From a virus (Duplodnaviria > Heunggongvirae > Uroviricota > Caudoviricetes): a stretch of 33,080 nucleotides of DNA. A program made the position numbers and the translations under genes. Below are positions 1,217-29,120 of the stretch, in pieces (positions within the stretch are counted from its first letter, which is position 1; each line of letters opens with the position of its first letter). Under the pieces are notes generated by a model that did no database searches, had not been told where the DNA came from, and saw only the letters and a program-made list of their open reading frames with translations. Where the stretch lies: IMG/VR virus record IMGVR_UViG_2896601577_000002, one strand, 5' to 3'.

Positions 1217-2161
1217 TCATTGATTCACCTCCTGCCTGTCGTCCGGCATTCGCTCACTACAGCTTATCCAACCATCCGGAGTTACCGGAACTTGTGGAAT
1301 GGCTGTCTGCTCTCGAACGTCATTAGGCGCTATAGGTTCTGCTGCCAACTGACTGGCATATTTGTTAATGGTAACGATAAGCTCTTGCTCAGCCTCATCC
1401 AGACAATCACCGATACCTCGCCTGTCACCGTCAAAATCATCGAAATCGGCACGAATCCTGGCAACCTTCAGGATTGCGGACAACACCTCACTAGGAATTG
1501 CCGGATAGTTGGTTGACGTTTCCGCGATTTCCCGAAAATTATTGGTTGACGAATTCTTGTTTTCCCGAAAGTTTCCGGACTGAAGCATGGCGGCGCGGCA
1601 GGCGTTCCATATTTCGGCAGCAATATCGCGCTCGCTATCGGTTAATTTGTACGTTGAAACATAGCCAGAGAGCATTTCTACGTTTTCCGGAGTTGCTTCT
1701 TCAGGCACTACCGGTGCTGGCTCACGTATTACAGGCTCGCCCATGCGTGATTCTCCCTGCGCCTCTTTCACCATGTGGTCATTGATTTGCTCCAGTCGCC
1801 GAACGTGCTCATCAGCTTCAAGCGCTCGCCGTTTCCAGATGGACAGGTCTTCACGAGCGCCCTGATATGCGTCACCGTATTCGCCGTTAAATACTGGCGC
1901 TGGCGGGGCGATGCGTCCAAGCAACTTATTTACCTCTTTCGCCATCGCGTCATATTTATCTAAATAGCGATTAGCTTCTAAGCAGACTCGGTGCATCTGA
2001 TCTGAGTTAACTCGTTTAACTGGATCTGCTTCCAATGATGCCAGTGCAATCCGTGCCAGTTCTTCCGCTTCTTCTGCTGGCAGTACAACGTTGCTACCCG
2101 GTCCGTATGTTTCGCGCCACTGCTTGATTGTCAGCAGTCGCCCTTTGGTAATAGTGATCAT
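1217..2161 (-). CDS. hypothetical prophage early-region protein (314 aa)
   Basis: Long ORF with coherent codon usage; 4-bp overlap with the next gene. Confidence 0.6.
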   Translation of the reverse strand: MITITKGRLLTIKQWRETYGPGSNVVLPAEEAEELARIALASLEADPVKRVNSDQMHRVCLEANRYLDKYDAMAKEVNKLLGRIAPPAPVFNGEYGDAYQGAREDLSIWKRRALEADEHVRRLEQINDHMVKEAQGESRMGEPVIREPAPVVPEEATPENVEMLSGYVSTYKLTDSERDIAAEIWNACRAAMLQSGNFRENKNSSTNNFREIAETSTNYPAIPSEVLSAILKVARIRADFDDFDGDRRGIGDCLDEAEQELIVTINKYASQLAAEPIAPNDVREQTAIPQVPVTPDGWISCSERMPDDRQEVNQ

Positions 2162-2384
2162 GCCGCGTTTCCTTCTTTCTTATTAACAATCACACCGTCA
2201 TATATTTCATTAAGGTGCCCTCTCAACTCCATGCGCCTTAATGCAGATAACATGTAATCGCATTCAACCTGCTTATTCCCGGTAAATGGCTTATCGTCAG
2301 GATTACCCCAACAGCAATTACCCCTGGGCCATCCATGTACTTTCCGTACTCTTCCGTTAACAACGTGAAGTAATCCTGAAGTGG

Positions 2385-3553
<1,169 letters not shown>

Positions 3554-3926
3554 TGGAGCACCTGTGTTGTTCTGAGGTGAGCATATCACCTCTGTTCAGG
3601 TGGCCAAATTCAGTGTGCCACTTCATCCCCAGCCGGGAGGTAAATCCTCAACTGAAATAATTTCCGGCTCACTAATAAAGAATCGCCAGTCGCCCATGCC
3701 AAGTGAGGGATTTTTACGGAAACGCTTTTTTCTATCTGCCAACAAGTCAGCACGAGAACACTTCGCCTCTATCAGGCATGATGCTGAATTTCTGAATCCC
3801 ATAGCATCTGGCTGTTCTCCGGTACTGGTTACAGCAACAAAGCGGTCATGAAAGCAAACCTTGAACCCGTTGCGCTTAAGGAACTTGTACGCAATCTGAC
3901 AGAGTTCGTGGTGTGTTAACGCCATA

Positions 3927-4463
3927 TCACTCTCCTTTGATGCGAATGTCAGCGACGCGTAATGCGTGTTCTAGGTCAATCAGGTAAAGCCAACTGCCAT
4001 TTTCTTTAGGTATCATGACTTGTCGCTCATATGCATTTATCGGGTGTCCATATCGAAGGTCGTAGCGAGTCGGTAATTGAACTTCCCGCGCTTCCAGTTC
4101 AGCAATACGCTTGCACCCATCAGAGATAACTCCCTCGTAATACTCGCGCTGCTCGTTGAGTTTTGATTTTGCTGCTTCAAGCTCAACGCGCAGCTTCCCA
4201 ACCGTAAGCGCAATATCCTCGTTCTCCTGGTCGCGGCGTTTGATGTATTGCTGGTTTCTTTCCCGTTCATCCAGTAGTGCCAGCACGGTTTCTGGTCCGG
4301 TCAGAAATTTGAAGGCATTGAGCGCATCAATATCCACACCGTAATCTTTAAGTTCCTGTTCACTTAACAAATCATCATCAACTGGCAACATTAACAGGCG
4401 TTCCATTGCTGGAATTGCACGTTCCGCCACCTCACGCAGTGCCTGGTAATTAATTTCGCTCAC
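3927..4463 (-). CDS. Ea22-like prophage protein
   Basis: N-terminus MSEINYQALREVAE, paralogous to the next ORF; typical lambdoid early-left protein. Confidence 0.65.
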   Translation of the reverse strand: MSEINYQALREVAERAIPAMERLLMLPVDDDLLSEQELKDYGVDIDALNAFKFLTGPETVLALLDERERNQQYIKRRDQENEDIALTVGKLRVELEAAKSKLNEQREYYEGVISDGCKRIAELEAREVQLPTRYDLRYGHPINAYERQVMIPKENGSWLYLIDLEHALRVADIRIKGE

Positions 4464-5140
4464 TGATTGCCTCCTTTGCGAAGCTGGGCAGCAAAGTCAA
4501 CTAACCACTCAGTCATTTCAACCTTCCCTACCAGGTCTGAACTAGGGTGCATACAGCAATCACTCTGCGCCGCTTTGAAATCCTTACACTCATATTCTTG
4601 GGCCACCAGATTTTTTGCAGCTTCTATAGCAGCATCCACCCCCTGCGCCCGGACTTCAGCCAGGAAAGCATCAGTGGTTGGCGTTTCAGGTATCTGTCTC
4701 CTCATCCGTTCTATTGCATGATTGAACCCGAAGTCTTCCGCGAGAGATACGTCATCCATATTGTCATTGTCATCCTCAATATCCCGTGATTCTGGAATTG
4801 CAGACTTTATTCCCGCATTCTCCGCTGCCAGCGCCGCGCACTTGGCTTCAAGAGCGGCAACCACTTCCTGATGGTCTTTGTACTTAACGTATGAGCCGGA
4901 GATGTCATCACCTTCGGTGTTTAGCCATGCGTCATTGCAATTCACTGCGTAGGTTCTGATGCTGATGCTCTCCCGCCCCTGACAGACGCCAGGCCAGTCA
5001 ATAAAGTATCCGCAATGCCTACCCTCAGACGTGCGCGCAGGATAAATGCCGTTATGACCCGGCAAAATATATGCTACCCATTCATCTTGCGTTGCCTGTT
5101 CCGCCGCCTCGCGCAGTGCCTGATAGTCAATCTTGCTCAC
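4460..5140 (-). CDS. Ea22-like prophage protein (paralog)
   Basis: N-terminus MSKIDYQALREAAE; 4-bp overlap with the downstream paralog. Confidence 0.65.
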   Translation of the reverse strand: MSKIDYQALREAAEQATQDEWVAYILPGHNGIYPARTSEGRHCGYFIDWPGVCQGRESISIRTYAVNCNDAWLNTEGDDISGSYVKYKDHQEVVAALEAKCAALAAENAGIKSAIPESRDIEDDNDNMDDVSLAEDFGFNHAIERMRRQIPETPTTDAFLAEVRAQGVDAAIEAAKNLVAQEYECKDFKAAQSDCCMHPSSDLVGKVEMTEWLVDFAAQLRKGGNQ

Positions 5141-5441
5141 TGGCAGCCTCCTTTGCCGGGATTTCTAACTTTTGAGTGGTTGTATCAAATTCAAACAACT
5201 TAACCACGTCATCAAACAGGACATAATCACCATCAGGATCTTCAGTCATATCTGCGCCACAATCCTGACCGCACGAGTCGCAACCATCCATATCAAGCTC
5301 GTATCGCTTCAGGTTTGCGATATTTGATAAATTCAGCGCCAGTACAGCCAGGTCATAAACCTCTTCGGCAGTGACATCGCTGTTCAGTCCCATTTCATGG
5401 CGATATATGATTTTTTCTACTCGTTGTTTTGTGATCGTCAT
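5127..5441 (-). CDS. hypothetical prophage protein
   Basis: ORF with ATG at 5441 and GGAG upstream; overlaps the Ea22-like start. Confidence 0.45.
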   Translation of the reverse strand: MTITKQRVEKIIYRHEMGLNSDVTAEEVYDLAVLALNLSNIANLKRYELDMDGCDSCGQDCGADMTEDPDGDYVLFDDVVKLFEFDTTTQKLEIPAKEAASEQD

Positions 5442-5712
5442 TTTTCTCTTCACTCCGATATACAAGGATTACTACACCCCCTCTGCTGATTGCGCGAGCT
5501 GGATCCCCTGGTTCCATGCCGTCAATTCCGAAGGCTTCGGAAAACGCATTCATTGCCTTCTGGCGTTCATCCTGCTTACGGCGTTTATTCCATTTTTTCA
5601 GGAACAACAGCGACAGCCACCGTCCGCTGCAGAACACGATGTAAAAATAACCAAGGAGCGCCAGGCCGACATTCAGGGCCGTTTCTATGGTTAGTTGTGA
5701 GTCAGTTGCCAT
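5395..5712 (-). CDS. hypothetical small membrane protein
   Basis: N-terminal hydrophobic segment followed by a basic stretch; overlaps neighbour, start and extent uncertain. Confidence 0.3.
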   Translation of the reverse strand: MATDSQLTIETALNVGLALLGYFYIVFCSGRWLSLLFLKKWNKRRKQDERQKAMNAFSEAFGIDGMEPGDPARAISRGGVVILVYRSEEKNDDHKTTSRKNHISP

Positions 5713-5992
5713 TTCTTACCTGTTTAAGTAACTGGTTGAACATAACACTTAGGGGATTGCTGTATCCAAACGGCAGATTGTTTACGCAGTACAGAATCAT
5801 TTTGTTTTTTTCTCCAGTTCGTACTATTAACCCATTCCACAATAACCGTGATAATTTATTACTGATAGAAGTTGCGCTTCTTCCAAGTGCGAGGGATATA
5901 TCTTCTCTACTGCAATCTGGATTTTCCTGGATATACTCGATAACGGTCATGTGGTCCCTTTTACTTAATATCTGTTTCGGATTGCATGCCAT
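5702..5992 (-). CDS. hypothetical protein, possibly winged-helix DNA-binding
   Basis: ORF; alternative start at 5950. Confidence 0.45.
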   Translation of the reverse strand: MACNPKQILSKRDHMTVIEYIQENPDCSREDISLALGRSATSISNKLSRLLWNGLIVRTGEKNKMILYCVNNLPFGYSNPLSVMFNQLLKQVRNGN

Positions 5993-5998
5993 GAGTAT

Positions 5999-6556
5999 TC
6001 ATTTCGTTAATAATTTCATCCAGAAGGATTTCAAGCCCTTCTCGACCCATATCTGAAAGAATGAAACCTTTATCAGGGAAGTAGTGAGCATTTTCTGATA
6101 AAGAAACAGCGCTCTTCCCATTCCTTCAGCTTCGCCGTATTTTTGAATTAAATTCCATTCAATATACTGTTGTAAGGCAAATCGAATGGGGCCGGGATAT
6201 ATCGTCATAAACCCATACATCCCGTTATATACCACGGCGTGTTCAGTTGTTCCGTGTTCAGTTGTTCCGTGTTCATTCAGGATATCAATTGTGCCGTTCT
6301 TGTCTTCTTCTTCGTTGATGAATGTCGTCACATACAACCATCGCCACTGAGCAACCTTCATCTCAACCGGAAGTTTACCCAGTAATCCTGCTTCGTCGGC
6401 TTGCGCCAGACACTGAAGGATACGTAAACCTCGCACATTAGGAGTATCGAATTCTCCGGCATCCAGACGACGTATGGCGTCGTGATAATCAATCGTCATA
6501 CTGCCAGTTCGTATACCATTGGCTGTTGCTTCAGCCTGGAATTCATCGTATTGCAT
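5999..6556 (-). CDS. hypothetical prophage protein with internal 15-bp tandem duplication
   Basis: ORF; repeat 6241-6275 encodes EHGTTEHGTTEH. Confidence 0.5.
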   Translation of the reverse strand: MQYDEFQAEATANGIRTGSMTIDYHDAIRRLDAGEFDTPNVRGLRILQCLAQADEAGLLGKLPVEMKVAQWRWLYVTTFINEEEDKNGTIDILNEHGTTEHGTTEHAVVYNGMYGFMTIYPGPIRFALQQYIEWNLIQKYGEAEGMGRALFLYQKMLTTSLIKVSFFQIWVEKGLKSFWMKLLTK

Positions 6557-6762: not shown

Positions 6763-6936
6763 TATTATCTCCCGTATGCTTTACGCAGAAATAAGCAGGC
6801 AATATGCATGTAATTTTCACCGTATTGTGCAATAAGGCAGGCGGTTAGACTGGCCCCCTGAATCTCCAGACAACCAGTATCACTTAAATAAGTGATAGTC
6901 TTAATACTAGTTTTTAGACTAGTCATTGGAGTACAG

Positions 6937-7298
6937 ATGATTGATGTCTTAGGGCCGGAGAAACGCAGACGGCGTACCACACAGGAAAAGATCGCAATTG
7001 TTCAGCAGAGCTTTGAACCGGGGATGACGGTCTCCCTCGTTGCCCGGCAACATGGTGTAGCAGCCAGTTATTTCTCTGGCGTAAGCAATACCAGGAAGGA
7101 AGTCTTACTGCTGTGGCCGCCGGAGAACAGGTTGTTCCTGCCTCTGAACTTGCTGCCGCCATGAAGCAGATTAAAGAACTCCAGCGCCTGCTCGGCAAGA
7201 AAACGATGGAAAATGAACTCCTCAAAGAAGCCGTTGAATATGGACGGGCAAAAAAGTGGATAGCGCACGCGCCCTTATTGCCCGGGGATGGGGAGTAA
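6937..7298 (+). pseudogene. insC: IS2 insC (OrfA) with frameshift from a 4-bp deletion
   Basis: Product matches InsC up to ...QHGVAAS, then shifts frame; the native frame resumes at [14 protein letters not shown]... (7113-7298). Confidence 0.75.
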
Positions 7299-8161
7299 GC
7301 TTAGTCAGCCGTTGTCTCCGGGTGTCGCGTGCGCAGTTGCACGTCATTCTCAGACGAACCGATGACTGGATGGATGGCCGCCGCAGTCGTCACACTGATG
7401 ATACGGATGTGCTTCTCCGTATACACCATGTTATCGGAGAGCTGCCCACGTATGGTTATCGTCGGGTATGGGCGCTGCTTCGCAGACAGGCAGAACTTGA
7501 TGGTATGCCTGCGATCAATGCCAAACGTGTTTACCGGATCATGCGCCAGAATGCGCTGTTGCTTGAGCGAAAACCTGCTGTACCGCCATCGAAACGGGCA
7601 CATACAGGCAGAGTGGCCGTGAAAGAAAGCAATCAGCGATGGTACTCTGACGGGTTCGAGTTCTGCTGTGATAACGGAGAGAGACTGCGTGTCACGTTCG
7701 CGCTGGACTGCTGTGATCGTGAGGCACTGCACTGGGCGGTGACTACCGGCGGCTTCAACAGTGAAACAGTACAGGACGTCATGCTGGGAGCGGTGGAACG
7801 CCGCTTCGGCAACGATCTTCCGTCGTCTCCAGTGGAGTGGCTGACGGATAATGGTTCATGCTACCGGGCTAATGAAACACGCCAGTTCGCCCGGATGTTG
7901 GGACTTGAACCGAAGAACACGGCGGTGCGGAGTCCGGAGAGTAACGGAATAGCAGAGAGCTTCGTGAAAACGATAAAGCGTGACTACATCAGTATCATGC
8001 CCAAACCAGACGGGTTAACGGCAGCAAAGAACCTTGCAGAGGCGTTCGAGCATTATAACGAATGGCATCCGCATAGTGCGCTGGGTTATCGCTCGCCACG
8101 GGAATATCTGCGGCAGCGGGCTTGTAATGGGTTAAGTGATAACAGATGTCTGGAAATATAG
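7256..8161 (+). CDS. insD: IS2 InsD (OrfB transposase)
   Basis: 301-aa product matches IS2 InsD. Confidence 0.85.
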
Positions 8162-8288
8162 GGGCAAATCCAGCGGTCTTGTGTGATGCCATATTCTTTA
8201 TAAAAGTCACAATAAAGCCTCCTGCGGATTAAGGTTGTAACAATCCCCGGCGATAAAACCGCAATAAACGTTCAGGGCATATTTGTTG

Positions 8289-8654
8289 TTATTGCGCTAA
8301 TTCTTTTTCGGCAGCAGCTTTTGTATACTCACATGCAAAACTCAGAATTTCGCTGCCGAGTGTTTTCGTTTCGTGATTACTGGACATATGTAATACCTGT
8401 GTTGCATGCAATAAATGATAAACATTTACCGCAAATGAATCAGGCTCCAGACAAATGCCTTCGTAATTATCTTGCTGTGAGGTTGTTTCTGTCATTGCTC
8501 CTGAAGTGCATGCGAGCCTGTTTTTGACAATTCTCTTTTCTCTAATCACTATATCGGCAACATCTATTGCCTTTACAACCTCCGGGAGAAGTTCCGGGTT
8601 TGTATAATCAAAGTCATCAACATGGAGAACAGTTATGTTTTCGAACTTTTTCAT
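8289..8654 (-). CDS. hypothetical protein (121 aa), second gene of the cassette downstream of cI
   Basis: ORF on the cI strand; no recognisable family. Confidence 0.5.
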   Translation of the reverse strand: MKKFENITVLHVDDFDYTNPELLPEVVKAIDVADIVIREKRIVKNRLACTSGAMTETTSQQDNYEGICLEPDSFAVNVYHLLHATQVLHMSSNHETKTLGSEILSFACEYTKAAAEKELAQ

Positions 8655-8782
8655 GGCTTCCTCAGCTGACTTATATGTTCTGCTATATAGCGAGTCTCAG
8701 AAGTGTTTTCATATTGAGACTGTTTCCGCAATGATTGATAAAAATGTTCGCATGTACCTTGAAGGGCGAAGCGGCGATTATG

Positions 8783-9286
8783 TCACCATTGGTATTGGTT
8801 CTTCCGCAGAAGAGCTTCGCGAGATAAGGGGCAAACTTGTTGAGATGCGTCATGGTGTTGCTGCTCCTCACTTTTTGGTTGCTCCGGAGGAGTAACCTCA
8901 CCAGTTAACAGCCACATCGGATCGCAGCCAAGAATATTTGCCAGTGGGATAAGCATACTGATAGTTGGTTCATACTCTCCGCTCTCCCACTGGATGATAA
9001 TTTCTTCATCGAGATCGAGCAGCCTGGCGAGTTCGGCGGTTGTTAAGCCGCAGGCTTCGCGTTGGGTGCGAAGACGGTTGTTGATTGCAGAATTTTTGTT
9101 CTGTAAAAGCATTGCTGACGATAGCTTTCTGGATATGCTATTTGTCATATCCCATGCCAGTCCTGCGCATGACTCTATATCGCTAGAGAGTGTAGCATCA
9201 GGTGTTGCTTTTGCTATTAGTGTAATGAGGCTGCCGAGGTTTTTCAGTTCTTCGAGACAGTCAAGAGTTGTAGCTTTATTGATCAT
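8783..9286 (-). CDS. hypothetical protein (167 aa) with XRE-type helix-turn-helix in its C-terminal half
   Basis: ATG at 9286 with GAGG 9 nt upstream; HTH segment LRTQREACGLTTAELARLLDLDEEIIIQWESGEYEPTISML. Confidence 0.6.
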   Translation of the reverse strand: MINKATTLDCLEELKNLGSLITLIAKATPDATLSSDIESCAGLAWDMTNSISRKLSSAMLLQNKNSAINNRLRTQREACGLTTAELARLLDLDEEIIIQWESGEYEPTISMLIPLANILGCDPMWLLTGEVTPPEQPKSEEQQHHDASQQVCPLSREALLRKNQYQW

Positions 9287-9388
9287 GAGATGATACCTCA
9301 GTTACGAACTTTGTTTTATGGTAACTAAGGCGTCAAGGTGTGGCAAGTGATTTTGATACTTTGGTTTCTTTTTGTGTTTTGTGTCTGG
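9287..9388 (-). promoter_or_regulatory. putative leftward promoter/operator (OL/PL-like) region
   Basis: TTGATACTTTGG at 9353-9364 is identical to a motif in the cI-proximal operator region; candidate -35 TTGCCA / -10 TACCAT on the minus strand. Confidence 0.35.
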
Positions 9389-10045
9389 TCAGAAAATATC
9401 CCACCTGGCATCAACCACAACACCTACTATTTCGCAATCATTGTCCATTTCTATGATTGGATATTGTGGATTAAGGGGCTTTAGAAACGCCTTTCCCATG
9501 TCAGAAATATATTTTTTGAATGTTGCTTCATTGGTGGATTTTTTTCTGGCGATGACGTAACACCCTGAAAAAACTTCTTTATCTGGGTTGACAAGGATCG
9601 ACATTCCTTCAGGAAATGTTATTCCTACGGGCGAAGTCATTGAGTCTCCGTGCACTTCCAGCCAGAACCCCCTCTCACCAGCGTATTTTACAGAATGCCT
9701 CCAATTATCCTGATCATACATGTTGTAGTCATCACCAGAAGTTGCGAATAATCCTGCCTGAACCCAGTTAATTACAGGGTAAGAGTGTGCTGTGTCTCTC
9801 TGTGGGCAGCTCTTAACATTATTTTCCCAATGCTTATCTTTTTCATCTCCGTTCTGAAGCCACTGCGGTGAACACCGCAGTGCAGCTGCAACTTTAAAAA
9901 GGGTGTCACCGTTGAAACTTTTTGTAAGGCCTTGCTCGGCTTTACTGATTGCAACTCTGGTGATCCCAGCTTTTTTAGCCAACGCATCTTGTGTTAACCC
10001 AGCTTTTTGCCGTGCGTTGATGAGACGTTCACCTAAAGACTTCAT
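9389..10045 (-). CDS. cI: CI-like prophage repressor (N-terminal HTH plus C-terminal S24/LexA-type peptidase)
   Basis: HTH LTQDALAKKAGITRVAISKAEQG; peptidase motif GDSM; GAGGAG SD before the ATG at 10045. Confidence 0.85.
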   Translation of the reverse strand: MKSLGERLINARQKAGLTQDALAKKAGITRVAISKAEQGLTKSFNGDTLFKVAAALRCSPQWLQNGDEKDKHWENNVKSCPQRDTAHSYPVINWVQAGLFATSGDDYNMYDQDNWRHSVKYAGERGFWLEVHGDSMTSPVGITFPEGMSILVNPDKEVFSGCYVIARKKSTNEATFKKYISDMGKAFLKPLNPQYPIIEMDNDCEIVGVVVDARWDIF

Positions 10046-20202: not shown

Positions 20203-20278
20203 GGCCCTTTAGCTCAGTGGTGAGAGCGAGCGACTCATAATCGCCAGGTCGCTGGTTCAAATCCAGCAAGGGCCACCA
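20203..20278 (+). tRNA. tRNA with CAT anticodon, most similar to tRNA-Ile2 (ileX/ileZ-like)
   Basis: Canonical cloverleaf; acceptor GGCCCTT/AAGGGCC; anticodon loop CTCATAA; T-loop TTCAAAT; encoded CCA. Confidence 0.8.
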
Positions 20279-20285
20279 TCACATA

Positions 20286-20358
20286 CCGCCATTAGCTCAT
20301 CAGGAAAGAGCGCCAGCCTTCGAAGCTGGTTGCGCGGAGTTCGGGTCCCGAAGGCGGT
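20286..20358 (+). tRNA. tRNA-Arg(TCG)-like, atypical (possible pseudo-tRNA)
   Basis: D-arm and anticodon arm are canonical (loop CTTCGAA) but the T-stem 3' strand is one nt short, position 58 is G, there is an acceptor mismatch and no encoded CCA. Confidence 0.45.
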
Positions 20359-20374
20359 TCATTATCTGTATCCT

Positions 20375-20451
20375 GCGTTGTTAGCTCAGCCGGACAGAGC
20401 AATTGCCTTCTAAGCAATCGGTCACTGGTTCGAATACAGTAGAACGCGCCA
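20375..20451 (+). tRNA. tRNA-Arg(TCT)
   Basis: Cloverleaf with anticodon loop CTTCTAA; T-loop TTCGAAT; CCA encoded; one mismatch each in acceptor and T stems. Confidence 0.7.
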
Positions 20452-20490: not shown

Positions 20491-20686
20491 AAATGTCTCA
20501 CAATTCAGGCGGTTGACTGTTGTCTGGTTTGCGGGGAGTTTGTTAAAAGAAACTGGCATGGTGAATCCCCCTGTGCGGAGGGGCAATCAGCGAGTAGGTA
20601 TATGGGATAATCGCAGATTCAGGTGCTGGTACTGAATTCACCGGGAGGCACCCGGCACCATGCAATGGCACATAGCGCCACTCTCC

Positions 20687-20722
20687 AGCCCCTCTCCGGA
20701 GGGGCTGTTTATATTGATTTTG
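20687..20722 (+). terminator. GC-rich palindromic hairpin with T-rich tail
   Basis: AGCCCCTC-TCCG-GAGGGGCT followed by GTTTATATTGATTTTG. Confidence 0.45.
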
Positions 20723-22391: not shown

Positions 22392-22718
22392 ATGACTAAA
22401 AATACTCGTTTTTCCCCCGAAGTCCGTCAACGGGCAGTCCGTATGGTTCTGGAAAGTCAGGGCGAATATGACTCACAATGGGCGACAATTTGTTCCATTG
22501 CTCCAAAGATTGGCTGTACGCCGGAGACTCTGCGTGTCTGGGTTCGCCAGCATGAGCGGGATACCGGGGGCGGTGATGGAGGGCTCACCACCGCTGAACG
22601 TCAGCGTCTGAAAGAGCTGGAGCGTGAAAATCGTGAACTGCGCCGCAGTAACGATATCCTTCGCCAGGCTTCCGCTTATTTTGCGAAGGCGGAGTTCGAC
22701 CGCCTCTGGAAAAAGTGA
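22392..22718 (+). CDS. IS629 OrfA
   Basis: 108-aa product [19 protein letters not shown]... Confidence 0.9.
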
Positions 22719-23605
22719 TGCCACTGCTGGATAAGCTGCGTAAGCTGTACGGGGTCGGACCGGTATGCAGTGAACTGCATATTGCCCCGTCAACGTATTA
22801 CCACTGTCAGCAACAGCGACATCATCCTGATAAACGCAGTGCCCGTGCGCAGCGCGATGACTGGCTGAAGAAAGAGATACTGCGCGTATACGATGGGAAT
22901 CATCAGGTATACGGTGTGCGTAAAGTCTGGCGTCAGTTGTTACGGGAAGGTATCAGAGTGGCCAGATGCACTGTGGCACGTCTCATGGCGGTTATGGGAC
23001 TTGCCGGTGTTCTCCGGGGTAAAAAGGTCCGTACGACCATCAGCCGGAAAGCCGTTGCCGCAGGCGACCGCGTAAACCGTCAGTTCGTGGCAGAACGACC
23101 TGACCAGCTGTGGGTAGCTGATTTTACTTACGTCAGCACATGGCAGGGCTTCGTCTATGTGGCGTTCATCATTGATGTGTTTGCCGGATACATTGTGGGG
23201 TGGCGGGTCTCATCGTCCATGGAGACGACATTCGTGCTGGATGCACTGGAGCAGGCGTTATGGGCCCGTCGACCGTCCGGCACGGTCCATCACAGTGATA
23301 AAGGTTCTCAGTATGTATCGCTGGCCTACACACAGCGGCTTAAGGAAGCCGGATTACTGGCATCAACAGGAAGTACAGGCGACTCGTATGACAACGCGAT
23401 GGCGGAGAGCATCAATGGTCTTTACAAAGCGGAGGTAATACACCGTAAGAGCTGGAAAAACCGTGCAGAAGTGGAACTGGCCACACTCACGTGGGTGGAC
23501 TGGTATAACAATCGACGATTGCTGGAAAGGCTGGGCCATACTCCTCCGGCAGAAGCAGAAAAAGCTTATTATGCTTCCATCGGAAACGATGATCTGGCAG
23601 CCTGA
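22715..23605 (+). CDS. IS629 OrfB transposase
   Basis: 296-aa IS3-family DDE transposase. Confidence 0.9.
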
Positions 23606-27906: not shown

Positions 27907-28233
27907 ATGACTAAAAATACTCGTTTTTCCCCCGAAGTCCGTCAACGGGCAGTCCGTATGGTTCTGGAAAGTCAGGGCGAATATGACTCACAATGGGCGA
28001 CAATTTGTTCCATTGCTCCAAAGATTGGCTGTACGCCGGAGACTCTGCGTGTCTGGGTTCGCCAGCATGAGCGGGATACCGGGGGCGGTGATGGAGGGCT
28101 CACCACCGCTGAACGTCAGCGTCTGAAAGAGCTGGAGCGTGAAAATCGTGAACTGCGCCGCAGTAACGATATCCTTCGCCAGGCTTCCGCTTATTTTGCG
28201 AAGGCGGAGTTCGACCGCCTCTGGAAAAAGTGA
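27907..28233 (+). CDS. IS629 OrfA
   Basis: Identical product to copy 1. Confidence 0.9.
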
Positions 28234-29120
28234 TGCCACTGCTGGATAAGCTGCGTAAGCTGTACGGGGTCGGACCGGTATGCAGTGAACTGCATATTGC
28301 CCCGTCAACGTATTACCACTGTCAGCAACAGCGACATCATCCTGATAAACGCAGTGCCCGTGCGCAGCGCGATGACTGGCTGAAGAAAGAGATACTGCGC
28401 GTATACGATGGGAATCATCAGGTATACGGTGTGCGTAAAGTCTGGCGTCAGTTGTTACGGGAAGGTATCAGAGTGGCCAGATGCACTGTGGCACGTCTCA
28501 TGGCGGTTATGGGACTTGCCGGTGTTCTCCGGGGTAAAAAGGTCCGTACGACCATCAGCCGGAAAGCCGTTGCCGCAGGCGACCGCGTAAACCGTCAGTT
28601 CGTGGCAGAACGACCTGACCAGCTGTGGGTGGCTGATTTTACTTACGTCAGCACATGGCAGGGCTTCGTCTATGTGGCGTTCATCATTGATGTGTTTGCC
28701 GGATACATCGTGGGGTGGCGGGTCTCATCGTCCATGGAAACGACATTCGTGCTGGATGCTCTGGAGCAGGCGTTATGGGCCCGTCGACCGTCCGGCACGG
28801 TCCATCACAGTGATAAAGGTTCTCAGTATGTATCGCTGGCCTACACACAGCGGCTTAAGGAAGCCGGATTACTGGCATCAACAGGAAGTACAGGCGACTC
28901 GTATGACAACGCGATGGCGGAGAGCATCAATGGTCTTTACAAAGCGGAGGTAATACACCGTAAGAGCTGGAAAAACCGTGCAGAAGTGGAACTGGCCACA
29001 CTCACGTGGGTGGACTGGTATAACAATCGACGATTGCTGGAAAGGCTGGGCCATACTCCTCCGGCAGAAGCAGAAAAAGCTTATTATGCTTCCATCGGAA
29101 ACGATGATCTGGCAGCCTGA
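28230..29120 (+). CDS. IS629 OrfB transposase
   Basis: Identical product to copy 1. Confidence 0.9.

Follow-up and report, generated by a model that had tools for sequence, protein, structure and literature searches.

A conserved early-left gene block with an overlapping opposite-strand partner gene in a phiP27-type lambdoid prophage

The interval considered here, positions 8289-9286 of a 33,080-nucleotide stretch of Caudoviricetes DNA (IMG/VR record IMGVR_UViG_2896601577_000002; "the window" below always means this whole stretch), lies next to the gene for a CI repressor and was singled out in a preliminary description, made from the sequence alone, as a two-gene cassette in the place that rexAB holds in phage lambda and that often carries exclusion or defence cargo. 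Described systems offer several points of comparison. In lambda, rexAB lies between cI and the operator OL and is co-transcribed with cI in lysogens, whereas the early-left operon comes right after an operator-flanked leftward promoter (PL) beside the repressor gene and opens with the gene for the arginine-rich antiterminator N. In Bacillus subtilis, the XRE-family repressor SinR is antagonised by the small protein SinI, which consists of the helical multimerisation hairpin that SinR also has. Phage P1 encodes the small protein Coi, whose promoter lies beside the repressor gene and is under repressor control, and DicA- and P22 C2-type repressors provide a reference for the helix-turn-helix (HTH) domain encoded at this locus.

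Compared with these, the interval reads as the part of the early-left (PL-like) operon nearest its promoter, in a phiP27-type lambdoid prophage, and it has three genes instead of two. It resembles the lambda operon in that leftward genes start right after an operator-flanked promoter-like site beside the repressor gene, and differs from it in that the first gene encodes an acidic HTH protein (isoelectric point, pI, 4.7) and not an arginine-rich antiterminator. We regard the anatomy of the locus, its position downstream of an OL/PL-like region, its wide conservation and the faulty public annotation of two of its genes as securely established. Tentatively, we further propose that the 167-residue protein is an early-left DNA-binding regulator, that the 121-residue protein belongs to the same modular family but, lacking an HTH, serves as a modulator, and that the third gene, orfX, is an opposing gene coupled to them in antisense. 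The features on which this rests are:

8289-8654, minus strand: open reading frame (ORF) for the 121-residue L08-type protein (phrog_5451, E = 1.7e-83; no Pfam family)
8635-8895, plus strand: orfX, 86 residues (phrog_6104, E = 1.4e-49, over the full length of the profile, positions 1-80 of 80)
8783-9286, minus strand: ORF for the 167-residue L10-type XRE-family regulator (Pfam HTH_3; phrog_4739, E = 3.6e-99)
9318-9346, minus strand: promoter-like site TTGCCA-17 nt-TACCAT, candidate PL (consensus scan; faces the regulator gene and adjoins the operator copy)
9353-9364, plus strand: operator-like 12-mer TTGATACTTTGG, OL-like copy (exact match, with the cI stop on one side and the start of the 167-residue protein on the other)
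9389-10045, minus strand: cI, LexA-like repressor with HTH and S24 peptidase domains (Pfam Peptidase_S24, E = 4.2e-22; HTH_3, E = 2.1e-14)
10092-10103, plus strand: second exact copy of TTGATACTTTGG (cI-cro intergenic, overlapping the -35 element of a rightward promoter-like site)

Both minus-strand ORFs of the preliminary description are thus present where it had placed them, co-oriented and next to cI; its count of two genes falls short by one, orfX being a third, conserved gene on the opposite strand. The region matches positions 4546-6106 of the Shiga toxin (Stx) 2e phage phiP27 at 96% DNA identity, and we use the phiP27 gene names for this region, L10 (the HTH protein), L09 and L08, none of which has an assigned function in phiP27 (three-digit numbers, such as L001 for phiP27 itself, denote compared loci and not genes). 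Positions 8200-9073 are 99.9% identical to PhiR49_2, a phage of ECOR13. Among 5,426 complete E. coli genomes, 326 (∼6%), some of them of sequence type 131 (ST131), contain sequence from here, every time in the chromosome, and many Stx1 and Stx2 prophages are among its carriers. PHROG families 4739, 5451 and 6104 cover the three window proteins end to end and, together with 4587, are the families tied to the L10/L09/L08 module of phiP27; the functions of all four families are unassigned. An Rfam search of 8173-10160 returned no RNA family, and in the literature we found no functional study of phiP27 L08 or L10, the paper on LF82 prophages treating other phages.

The position of the block relative to cI follows from the operator motif and the promoter-like site beside it. 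As had been reported, a copy of the motif lies just upstream of the first gene (9353-9364), and the copy at 10092-10103 is the only other exact occurrence of TTGATACTTTGG in the whole 33 kb. Its 9-nucleotide core, GATACTTTG, occurs three times in the window, always in the immunity region (at 9355, at 10094 and, inverted, at 10131-10139 on the minus strand), against about 0.25 occurrences expected by chance for a given 9-mer on both strands of 33 kb (our own arithmetic). All five fetched loci with this cI type have the core at the counterparts of 9355 and 10094, and no others do: it is absent from five further fetched loci without this cI type, and the one copy in PhiR49_2, which has another cI, is unrelated and lies inside the annotated roi gene (7411-7419). 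Because the core is confined to loci with this cI and so few copies are expected by chance, we read TTGATACTTTGG/GATACTTTG as an immunity-specific, non-chance operator-like element; no palindromic structure could be resolved in the motif.

On the minus strand, the cI stop codon is followed by CCAAAGTATCAA (the operator copy), TTGCCA-17-TACCAT, a GAGG Shine-Dalgarno sequence and the start codon of the regulator, the 12-mer lying directly upstream of the -35 element of the leftward promoter-like site. The same architecture is found in L005, L010 and L014 (an Stx1a phage), which share this cI type and carry a second operator-like site, TTGATACCTTAG, in the promoter spacer; its counterpart in the window is degenerate (TTGACGCCTTAG). 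In PhiR49_2, with its other cI type, a stem-loop with a T-run, recognised as a terminator by scan, comes straight after cI and is followed by TTGACA-17-TAATAT before the regulator gene. L011 and L007 have the same strong promoter as PhiR49_2, flanked by ATCAAT-type palindromes, and in L008 and L009 terminator-like hairpins with T-runs follow the repressor gene (identified by eye, unscanned). A repressor-regulated leftward promoter controlling the pair, as the preliminary description suggested, is plausible in view of the promoter-like site next to the operator copy and the second operator-like site in relatives. Because operator and promoter-like site separate cI from the gene pair, and further from the terminator after cI and the promoter before the regulator gene in PhiR49_2, the regulator gene appears to open a separate leftward transcription unit flanked by operators, which puts it in the position of lambda N and not in that of rexAB where it had been placed.

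What the locus shares with rexAB is a pair of co-oriented genes next to cI; the location differs, as the operator and promoter-like site (recognised by sequence) precede the pair, and no Rex or PADLOC defence homology was found beyond the generic HTH of the 167-residue protein and a weak Cas11a match of orfX (PADLOC, E = 0.03). Searches against Pfam, PADLOC, PHROG and NCBIfam agree with the earlier statement that the two products are unlike N, Rex or any known defence protein, and the profile and fold searches that it had called for gave no antiterminator, toxin or defence homology, the hits from PADLOC, Pfam and NCBIfam being confined to generic HTH matches of the regulator and the weak Cas11a match. 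None of the left-arm ORFs examined is N-like, nut-like sites not having been searched.

The regulator is recognisable as an XRE-family DNA-binding protein by its HTH_3 domain (Pfam PF01381, residues 72-126, nucleotides 8909-9073, E = 3.8e-11, 43.3 bits against a cut-off of 23). The XRE assignment in the preliminary description therefore holds; the domain is central to C-terminal and followed by a 40-residue tail. This tail is poorly conserved, lies antisense to orfX and is dispensable, since it is missing from the 138-residue regulators of phiP27 and L010; over residues 1-132, the regulator and phiP27 L10 are 96% identical. For the N-terminal ∼65 residues, a database search gave only fragments of the same protein, and no relatives were detected outside this lineage. 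The HTH domain is 80-100% identical across prophages with differing repressors, whereas the N-terminal region varies with immunity type, and because of this constancy of the HTH domain across immunity types it probably reads a site common to these phages and not the immunity-specific operators. A C-terminal motif of the domain, PLANxLxCDPxWLLTG, resembles DicA- and P22 C2-type repressors; the HTH domain is alike, but the NCBIfam DicA subfamily model (NF007257) matches residues 64-144 at E = 4e-13 with 49.2 bits, below its curated cut-off of 101, and the window protein has an additional N-terminal region. It is moreover encoded downstream of a true S24-type repressor and is not itself the immunity repressor.

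The order repressor, HTH regulator, (orfX), N-domain gene (the N-domain being the N-terminal half of the L08-type protein, described below) recurs with at least four repressor types, comprising two kinds of S24-type CI and short non-S24 repressors, in Escherichia (E. coli), Salmonella and Citrobacter. We surveyed 111 orfX-containing loci from metagenomes and viral contigs, which are largely close relatives, so that counts among them are not independent events: in ∼90 of them, an N-domain-hairpin gene stands head-to-head with orfX, overlapping it by 20 nucleotides (38 where a longer ORF was called), and an HTH gene stands tail-to-tail with it. The comparison of the interval across related prophages proposed earlier thus speaks for a conserved core and against a variable exclusion or defence slot, and we take the module to be a conserved block and not variable cargo. 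Only the short slot between the regulator and L08 genes varies, being empty in L010, occupied by orfX in the window and filled by an unrelated 520-bp segment in phiP27, and this slot is a replacement hotspot. In L010, the regulator stop overlaps an ATG that is in frame with L08 and precedes its usual start by two codons, and an ATGA overlap of the two genes is found there and in L011. In phiP27, the 520 bp of unrelated DNA (5085-5604) replaces window positions 8742-8899, so that orfX is cut down to its first ∼36 codons and the regulator shortened to 138 residues. The segment is present in ∼13% of the related E. coli loci sampled, and its ORF calls compete, phrog_23054 (82 residues, co-oriented) with phrog_20080 (75 residues, opposite strand), both of unassigned function. 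A further mosaic joint, at 9073, falls on the codon that opens the HTH domain. The N-terminal part of the regulator moves together with cI, for which the simplest explanation is that the HTH-coding segment is the nearest conserved DNA for recombination.

The 121-residue protein is acidic (pI 5.0), has no DNA-binding domain and is 96% identical to phiP27 L08. It consists of an N-domain (residues 1 to ∼50, nucleotides ∼8505-8654) with the motif ITVLH..D.ADIVI.G..VVKNR and, after a disordered linker, a helical hairpin (residues ∼60-120, nucleotides ∼8292-8477); in the AlphaFold2 model, these appear as an α/β domain at residues 9-45, a linker at 49-68 and long helices at 74-89 and 94-120. PGAP, the RefSeq annotation pipeline, annotates only the last 68 codons of the gene (e.g., 4090-4296 in L003). 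Homologues down to 44-45% identity have the same start and a length of 117-123 residues, and in the N-terminal half conserved blocks (D.ADIVI and VVKNR) alternate with variable positions. Given this conservation of start, length and N-terminal blocks, and the occurrence of the N-terminal 55 residues as an independent module, the ORF can be considered real over its full length.

Indeed, a profile search of 1.8 billion representative proteins split L08 into two modules, residues 1-55 and 58-120, that occur independently. The hairpin is found alone in proteins of 60-72 residues and also N-terminal to one to three XRE HTH domains (P0074, P0075, P0077, P0085, P0087 and P0092, for example, combine it with one or two), and the N-domain is found alone, before other helical tails, or before two HTH domains (P0060, P0066 and P0069). 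Sister prophages carry such fusions at this very position: the L08 hairpin and the regulator N-terminus of L007 and L011 are 34-45% identical (E = 1.6e-7 to 6e-6), the hairpin profile hidden Markov model (HMM) matches the regulator of L009 (E = 2e-7), and hairpin-bearing regulators are a feature of 45 of the 111 surveyed loci. In Stx1 and Stx2 prophages, the regulator gene is followed by one for a 66-residue hairpin-only protein, with the ATGA overlap in L011 joining both genes. L013 has a tandem expansion of the same parts (1983-4316), namely an HTH regulator, orfX in antisense, an N-domain-HTH-HTH protein, a 116-residue N-domain-helical protein, a 66-residue hairpin-only protein and a 131-residue helical protein. 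On the other hand, the hairpin profile had no match in the PDB below E = 0.2, and for the 121-residue protein we found no Pfam family, no match to Pfam SinI, no similarity to known antirepressor families and no toxin-like family or fold that would make it a type II toxin.

The third gene, orfX, spans the 128-nucleotide gap between the two minus-strand ORFs and overlaps both. Its 5′ end overlaps that of L08, head-to-head, by 20 nucleotides, and its last 113 nucleotides run antisense to the tail-coding end of the regulator gene; a Shine-Dalgarno sequence (GGAG, 8624-8627) precedes its ATG by 7 nucleotides. Escherichia, Salmonella and Citrobacter have homologues of 82-88 residues that are 58-97% identical. 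Over codons 8-49, which are intergenic for the minus-strand genes, substitutions cluster at the third codon position (e.g., 6, 3 and 18 at positions 1, 2 and 3), and the ratio of nonsynonymous to synonymous substitution rates (dN/dS) is 0.04-0.27, and 0.04-0.2 in all pairs except the closest, with dS reaching ∼2. These patterns indicate that orfX encodes a protein under strong purifying selection. AlphaFold2 predicts a strand-strand-helix-strand-helix fold with a confidence score (pLDDT) of ∼90 over residues 11-70, for which we found no relatives in Pfam, among PDB sequences or by fold search, a GIY-YIG nuclease fold having been considered among the candidates. Full-length orfX is present in 151 of the 5,426 complete E. 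coli genomes and is left unannotated by PGAP in all 25 RefSeq records sampled. A conserved, head-to-head overlapping partner gene that is missing from RefSeq annotation is the unusual feature of this locus.

The 20-nucleotide 5′ overlap is kept in all enterobacterial loci with a full-length orfX not cut by the end of a contig, and it implies that each of the two mRNAs must start within or beyond the other gene. Because of this overlap, and because any transcript from PL is complementary to the orfX mRNA over its full length, orfX and the PL genes probably antagonise each other's expression. Among the genes of the module, orfX alone is oriented to suit expression independent of the early-left promoter.

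Read together, these observations suggest the following course of events. Once CI repression is lifted, transcription from PL would yield the regulator and, on the same transcript, the 121-residue protein, a co-transcription supported by the ATGA overlap in relatives that lack orfX. The regulator would act on a target common to these phages and not on immunity-specific operators, and the acidic, HTH-less 121-residue protein would modulate regulators of the L10 class by protein-protein contacts, a step modelled on the antagonism of the XRE repressor SinR by the hairpin-only SinI. The PL transcript, antisense to the whole of orfX, would set the expression of the two sides against each other. The likeness to SinR/SinI is closest in the sister prophages, where a hairpin-HTH regulator is followed by the gene for a homologous hairpin protein without HTH, either the hairpin alone (66 residues) or N-domain plus hairpin. 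The phage hairpin is, however, N-terminal and not C-terminal to the HTH, and there is no Pfam SinI match, no sequence relative in the PDB and no co-variation between the partners; the resemblance would thus be one of logic only. In kind, a phage regulator with a partner protein is a known type of locus.

Several observations weigh against this proposal. Homology of the regulator N-terminus (residues 1-65) to the L08 hairpin was considered and rejected (HMM E = 0.1, hhalign probability 0.3%), and no other ORF of the window has a hairpin or an N-domain; with a regulator that lacks the hairpin, the paralogy seen in sister prophages is missing from this one. One type of L08 hairpin is paired with at least four regulator N-termini, and one regulator N-terminus with different hairpins, and as no co-variation between the two was found, a specific, co-evolving heterodimer is unsupported. 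The joint at 9073 means that the fusions could be by-products of recombination and not a sign of interaction. The target of the regulator was not found. The promoter-like site of the window is weak, with 9 of 12 consensus matches, and as the scan between cI and the regulator gene detected no terminator-like site there, some read-through of the cI transcript into the module is possible in lysogens. For orfX itself, the only promoter candidate is a TATAAT at 8603-8608, which has no usable -35 element and whose hexamer is constrained by codons of L08.

A different division of the locus, which we judge unlikely yet well ahead of any of those discussed after it, makes orfX and the N-domain gene the functional unit, as a reciprocal antisense switch or with orfX as a moron that the lysogen expresses as long as PL is silent, and the HTH gene a mere neighbour. 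The conserved 5′ overlap, the strong purifying selection on orfX and its orientation, alone among the module genes, against PL would all fit such a unit, as would a single case outside enterobacteria. In a scan of one genome per species, the pair was found at one further locus only, a contig of a Pirellula metagenome-assembled genome (L015, JANPNA010000166.1), where an orfX homologue (2480-2689, plus strand; HMM E = 5e-16, also matching phrog_6104) stands back-to-back, with start codons 1 nucleotide apart, with the gene for a 78-residue protein (2242-2478, minus strand; N-domain HMM E = 3e-8) that has neither hairpin nor HTH, and no HTH gene is part of the unit. It is flanked by 31-nucleotide direct repeats (at 2204, 2685 and 3195), and a second N-domain copy 991 bp away is marked by an 88-nucleotide perfect repeat (2212-2299 and 3203-3290). 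The stretch from 2200 to 3484 looks like a cassette array; its repeats do not match the canonical attC core of integrons.

Were this division correct in its switch form, orfX and the N-domain would make up an undescribed, autonomous two-gene unit, in which orfX is expressed while the lysogen keeps PL repressed and the N-domain protein takes over upon induction; the unit would be old and mobile enough to be common to enterobacterial prophages and a repeat-flanked planctomycete cassette array. The cross-phylum case is, however, one metagenome-assembled contig, and each half of the supposed unit also occurs without the other. Distant orfX homologues (L048, 1501-1764; L050 and L051, 2483-2746), which share 37-38% identity and the motif SQNCFHIE, lie without an N-domain partner on AT-rich, phage-like contigs, their neighbours being genes for a primase/helicase or a DnaD-like helicase loader; the phrog_6104 profile also matches those of L048 and L050. 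N-domain genes without orfX are found in L010 and, as the second such gene, in L013, and no promoter was found for orfX. From the distant homologues, the orfX family appears to be wider than enterobacterial prophages, and, because they lack an N-domain partner, its pairing with the N-domain seems conserved and not obligatory.

To two further explanations we give little credence. In one, the lysis-lysogeny decision is set by the 167-residue protein, acting either as a CII/C1-like activator or as an additional repressor of the DicA kind, and the 121-residue protein is an unrelated early accessory. In favour of this are a match of residues 49-138 to phrog_4836, a "CII-like regulator" (E = 1.3e-40), partial matches to DicA and RstR models, homologues in phi467 and ASU11 that carry the labels "DicA" or "putative CII repressor", and the annotation rightward of cro, in which we saw no cII-like gene. 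Such labels are, however, unverified annotations, the DicA score stays under its cut-off, and the close coupling of regulator and L08-type genes in sister prophages, with the domains that they share there, points to joint action.

The other, similarly improbable, follows from the earlier idea of exclusion cargo: a module expressed in the lysogen for exclusion or abortive infection, in the manner of rexAB or of a type II toxin-antitoxin system, with the HTH protein as sensor or antitoxin and the 121-residue protein as effector or toxin. The module does adjoin cI with no terminator-like site detected by the window scan before the 167-residue gene, an XRE HTH gene with a small overlapping gene (the ATGA of L010 and L011) is a common toxin-antitoxin layout, and the HTH region weakly matches antitoxin- and defence-associated HTH models. 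Against this stand the operator and promoter-like site between cI and the pair, the terminator found by scan after cI in PhiR49_2 and the hairpins seen by eye in L008 and L009, as well as the conservation of the block across immunity types; PADLOC has nothing for the 121-residue protein and for orfX only the weak Cas11a match, no toxin-like family or fold was found, and both domains of the 121-residue protein occur fused to HTH domains in single polypeptides, which is unusual for a toxin. Defence, toxin-antitoxin and rex readings thus have no positive support.

Least probable of all is that the 121-residue protein is a Coi-like antirepressor against CI, giving positive feedback once induction starts, since, small, acidic, free of a DNA-binding domain and encoded just downstream of an operator-flanked promoter-like site beside cI as it is, nearly the same protein (95-100% identical) adjoins differing S24-type CI repressors of 218 and 229 residues and more distant homologues adjoin non-S24 repressors, which fits poorly with specific recognition of one repressor, and it has no similarity to known antirepressor families.

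Should early transcription or commitment to induction be under the control of the regulator and its HTH-less partner, the two would bear on the induction of Stx phages that lack N. Independently of this, orfX is a clear case of a conserved coding gene that annotation pipelines drop where it overlaps two annotated genes, and the way in which N-domain, hairpin and HTH modules recombine freely, joining at their boundaries, amounts to a natural experiment in the rebuilding of phage regulators. The locus also illustrates that adjacency to cI alone is insufficient to call a defence slot, the position relative to OL/PL being decisive.

The surroundings of the block add some detail. The start of cI according to PGAP gives a 218-residue "LexA family protein", while the longest ORF reaches 10120, and a cro-like gene diverges from cI at 10157; this cI defines the immunity type. 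On its other side, the block is bordered by an insertion sequence (IS):

6846-8172, plus strand: IS2 copy, 1327 bp, with a 5-bp target duplication, GCGGT (comparison with the uninterrupted prophages L002 and L003; transposase ORFs)

It sits in intergenic DNA 111 bp downstream of the gene for the 121-residue protein and splits the module from the remaining early-left genes. The canonical length of IS2 is 1331 bp, which makes this copy 4 bp shorter, and its first ORF is split in two (6892-7164 and 7113-7298), indicating a frameshifted insC. Two apparently identical IS3-family copies (22392-23605 and 27907-29120) each contain an ALIL frameshifting pseudoknot, with equal bit scores, and another IS3-family transposase is encoded at ∼2385-3589; with four IS copies in all, including IS2, the prophage is probably defective. 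The early-left arm also encodes a 96-residue MarR-type winged-helix protein (5702-5992), whose matches to the MarR family are stronger than its weak one to the PHROG "Ren-like exclusion protein" (E = 4e-5). To the right of the immunity region, Rfam locates isrK (11254-11330) and a C4 antisense RNA (11352-11439) on the plus strand within the 5′ part of an ORF for a 282-residue Rha/ash-like protein (11197-12045), and the stretch 11254-11439 resembles a P1/P7-type region for the antisense control of an antirepressor-like gene. Further along, three tRNA genes (20203-20448) are followed, still within the prophage, by the small RNA STnc100 (20527-20716).

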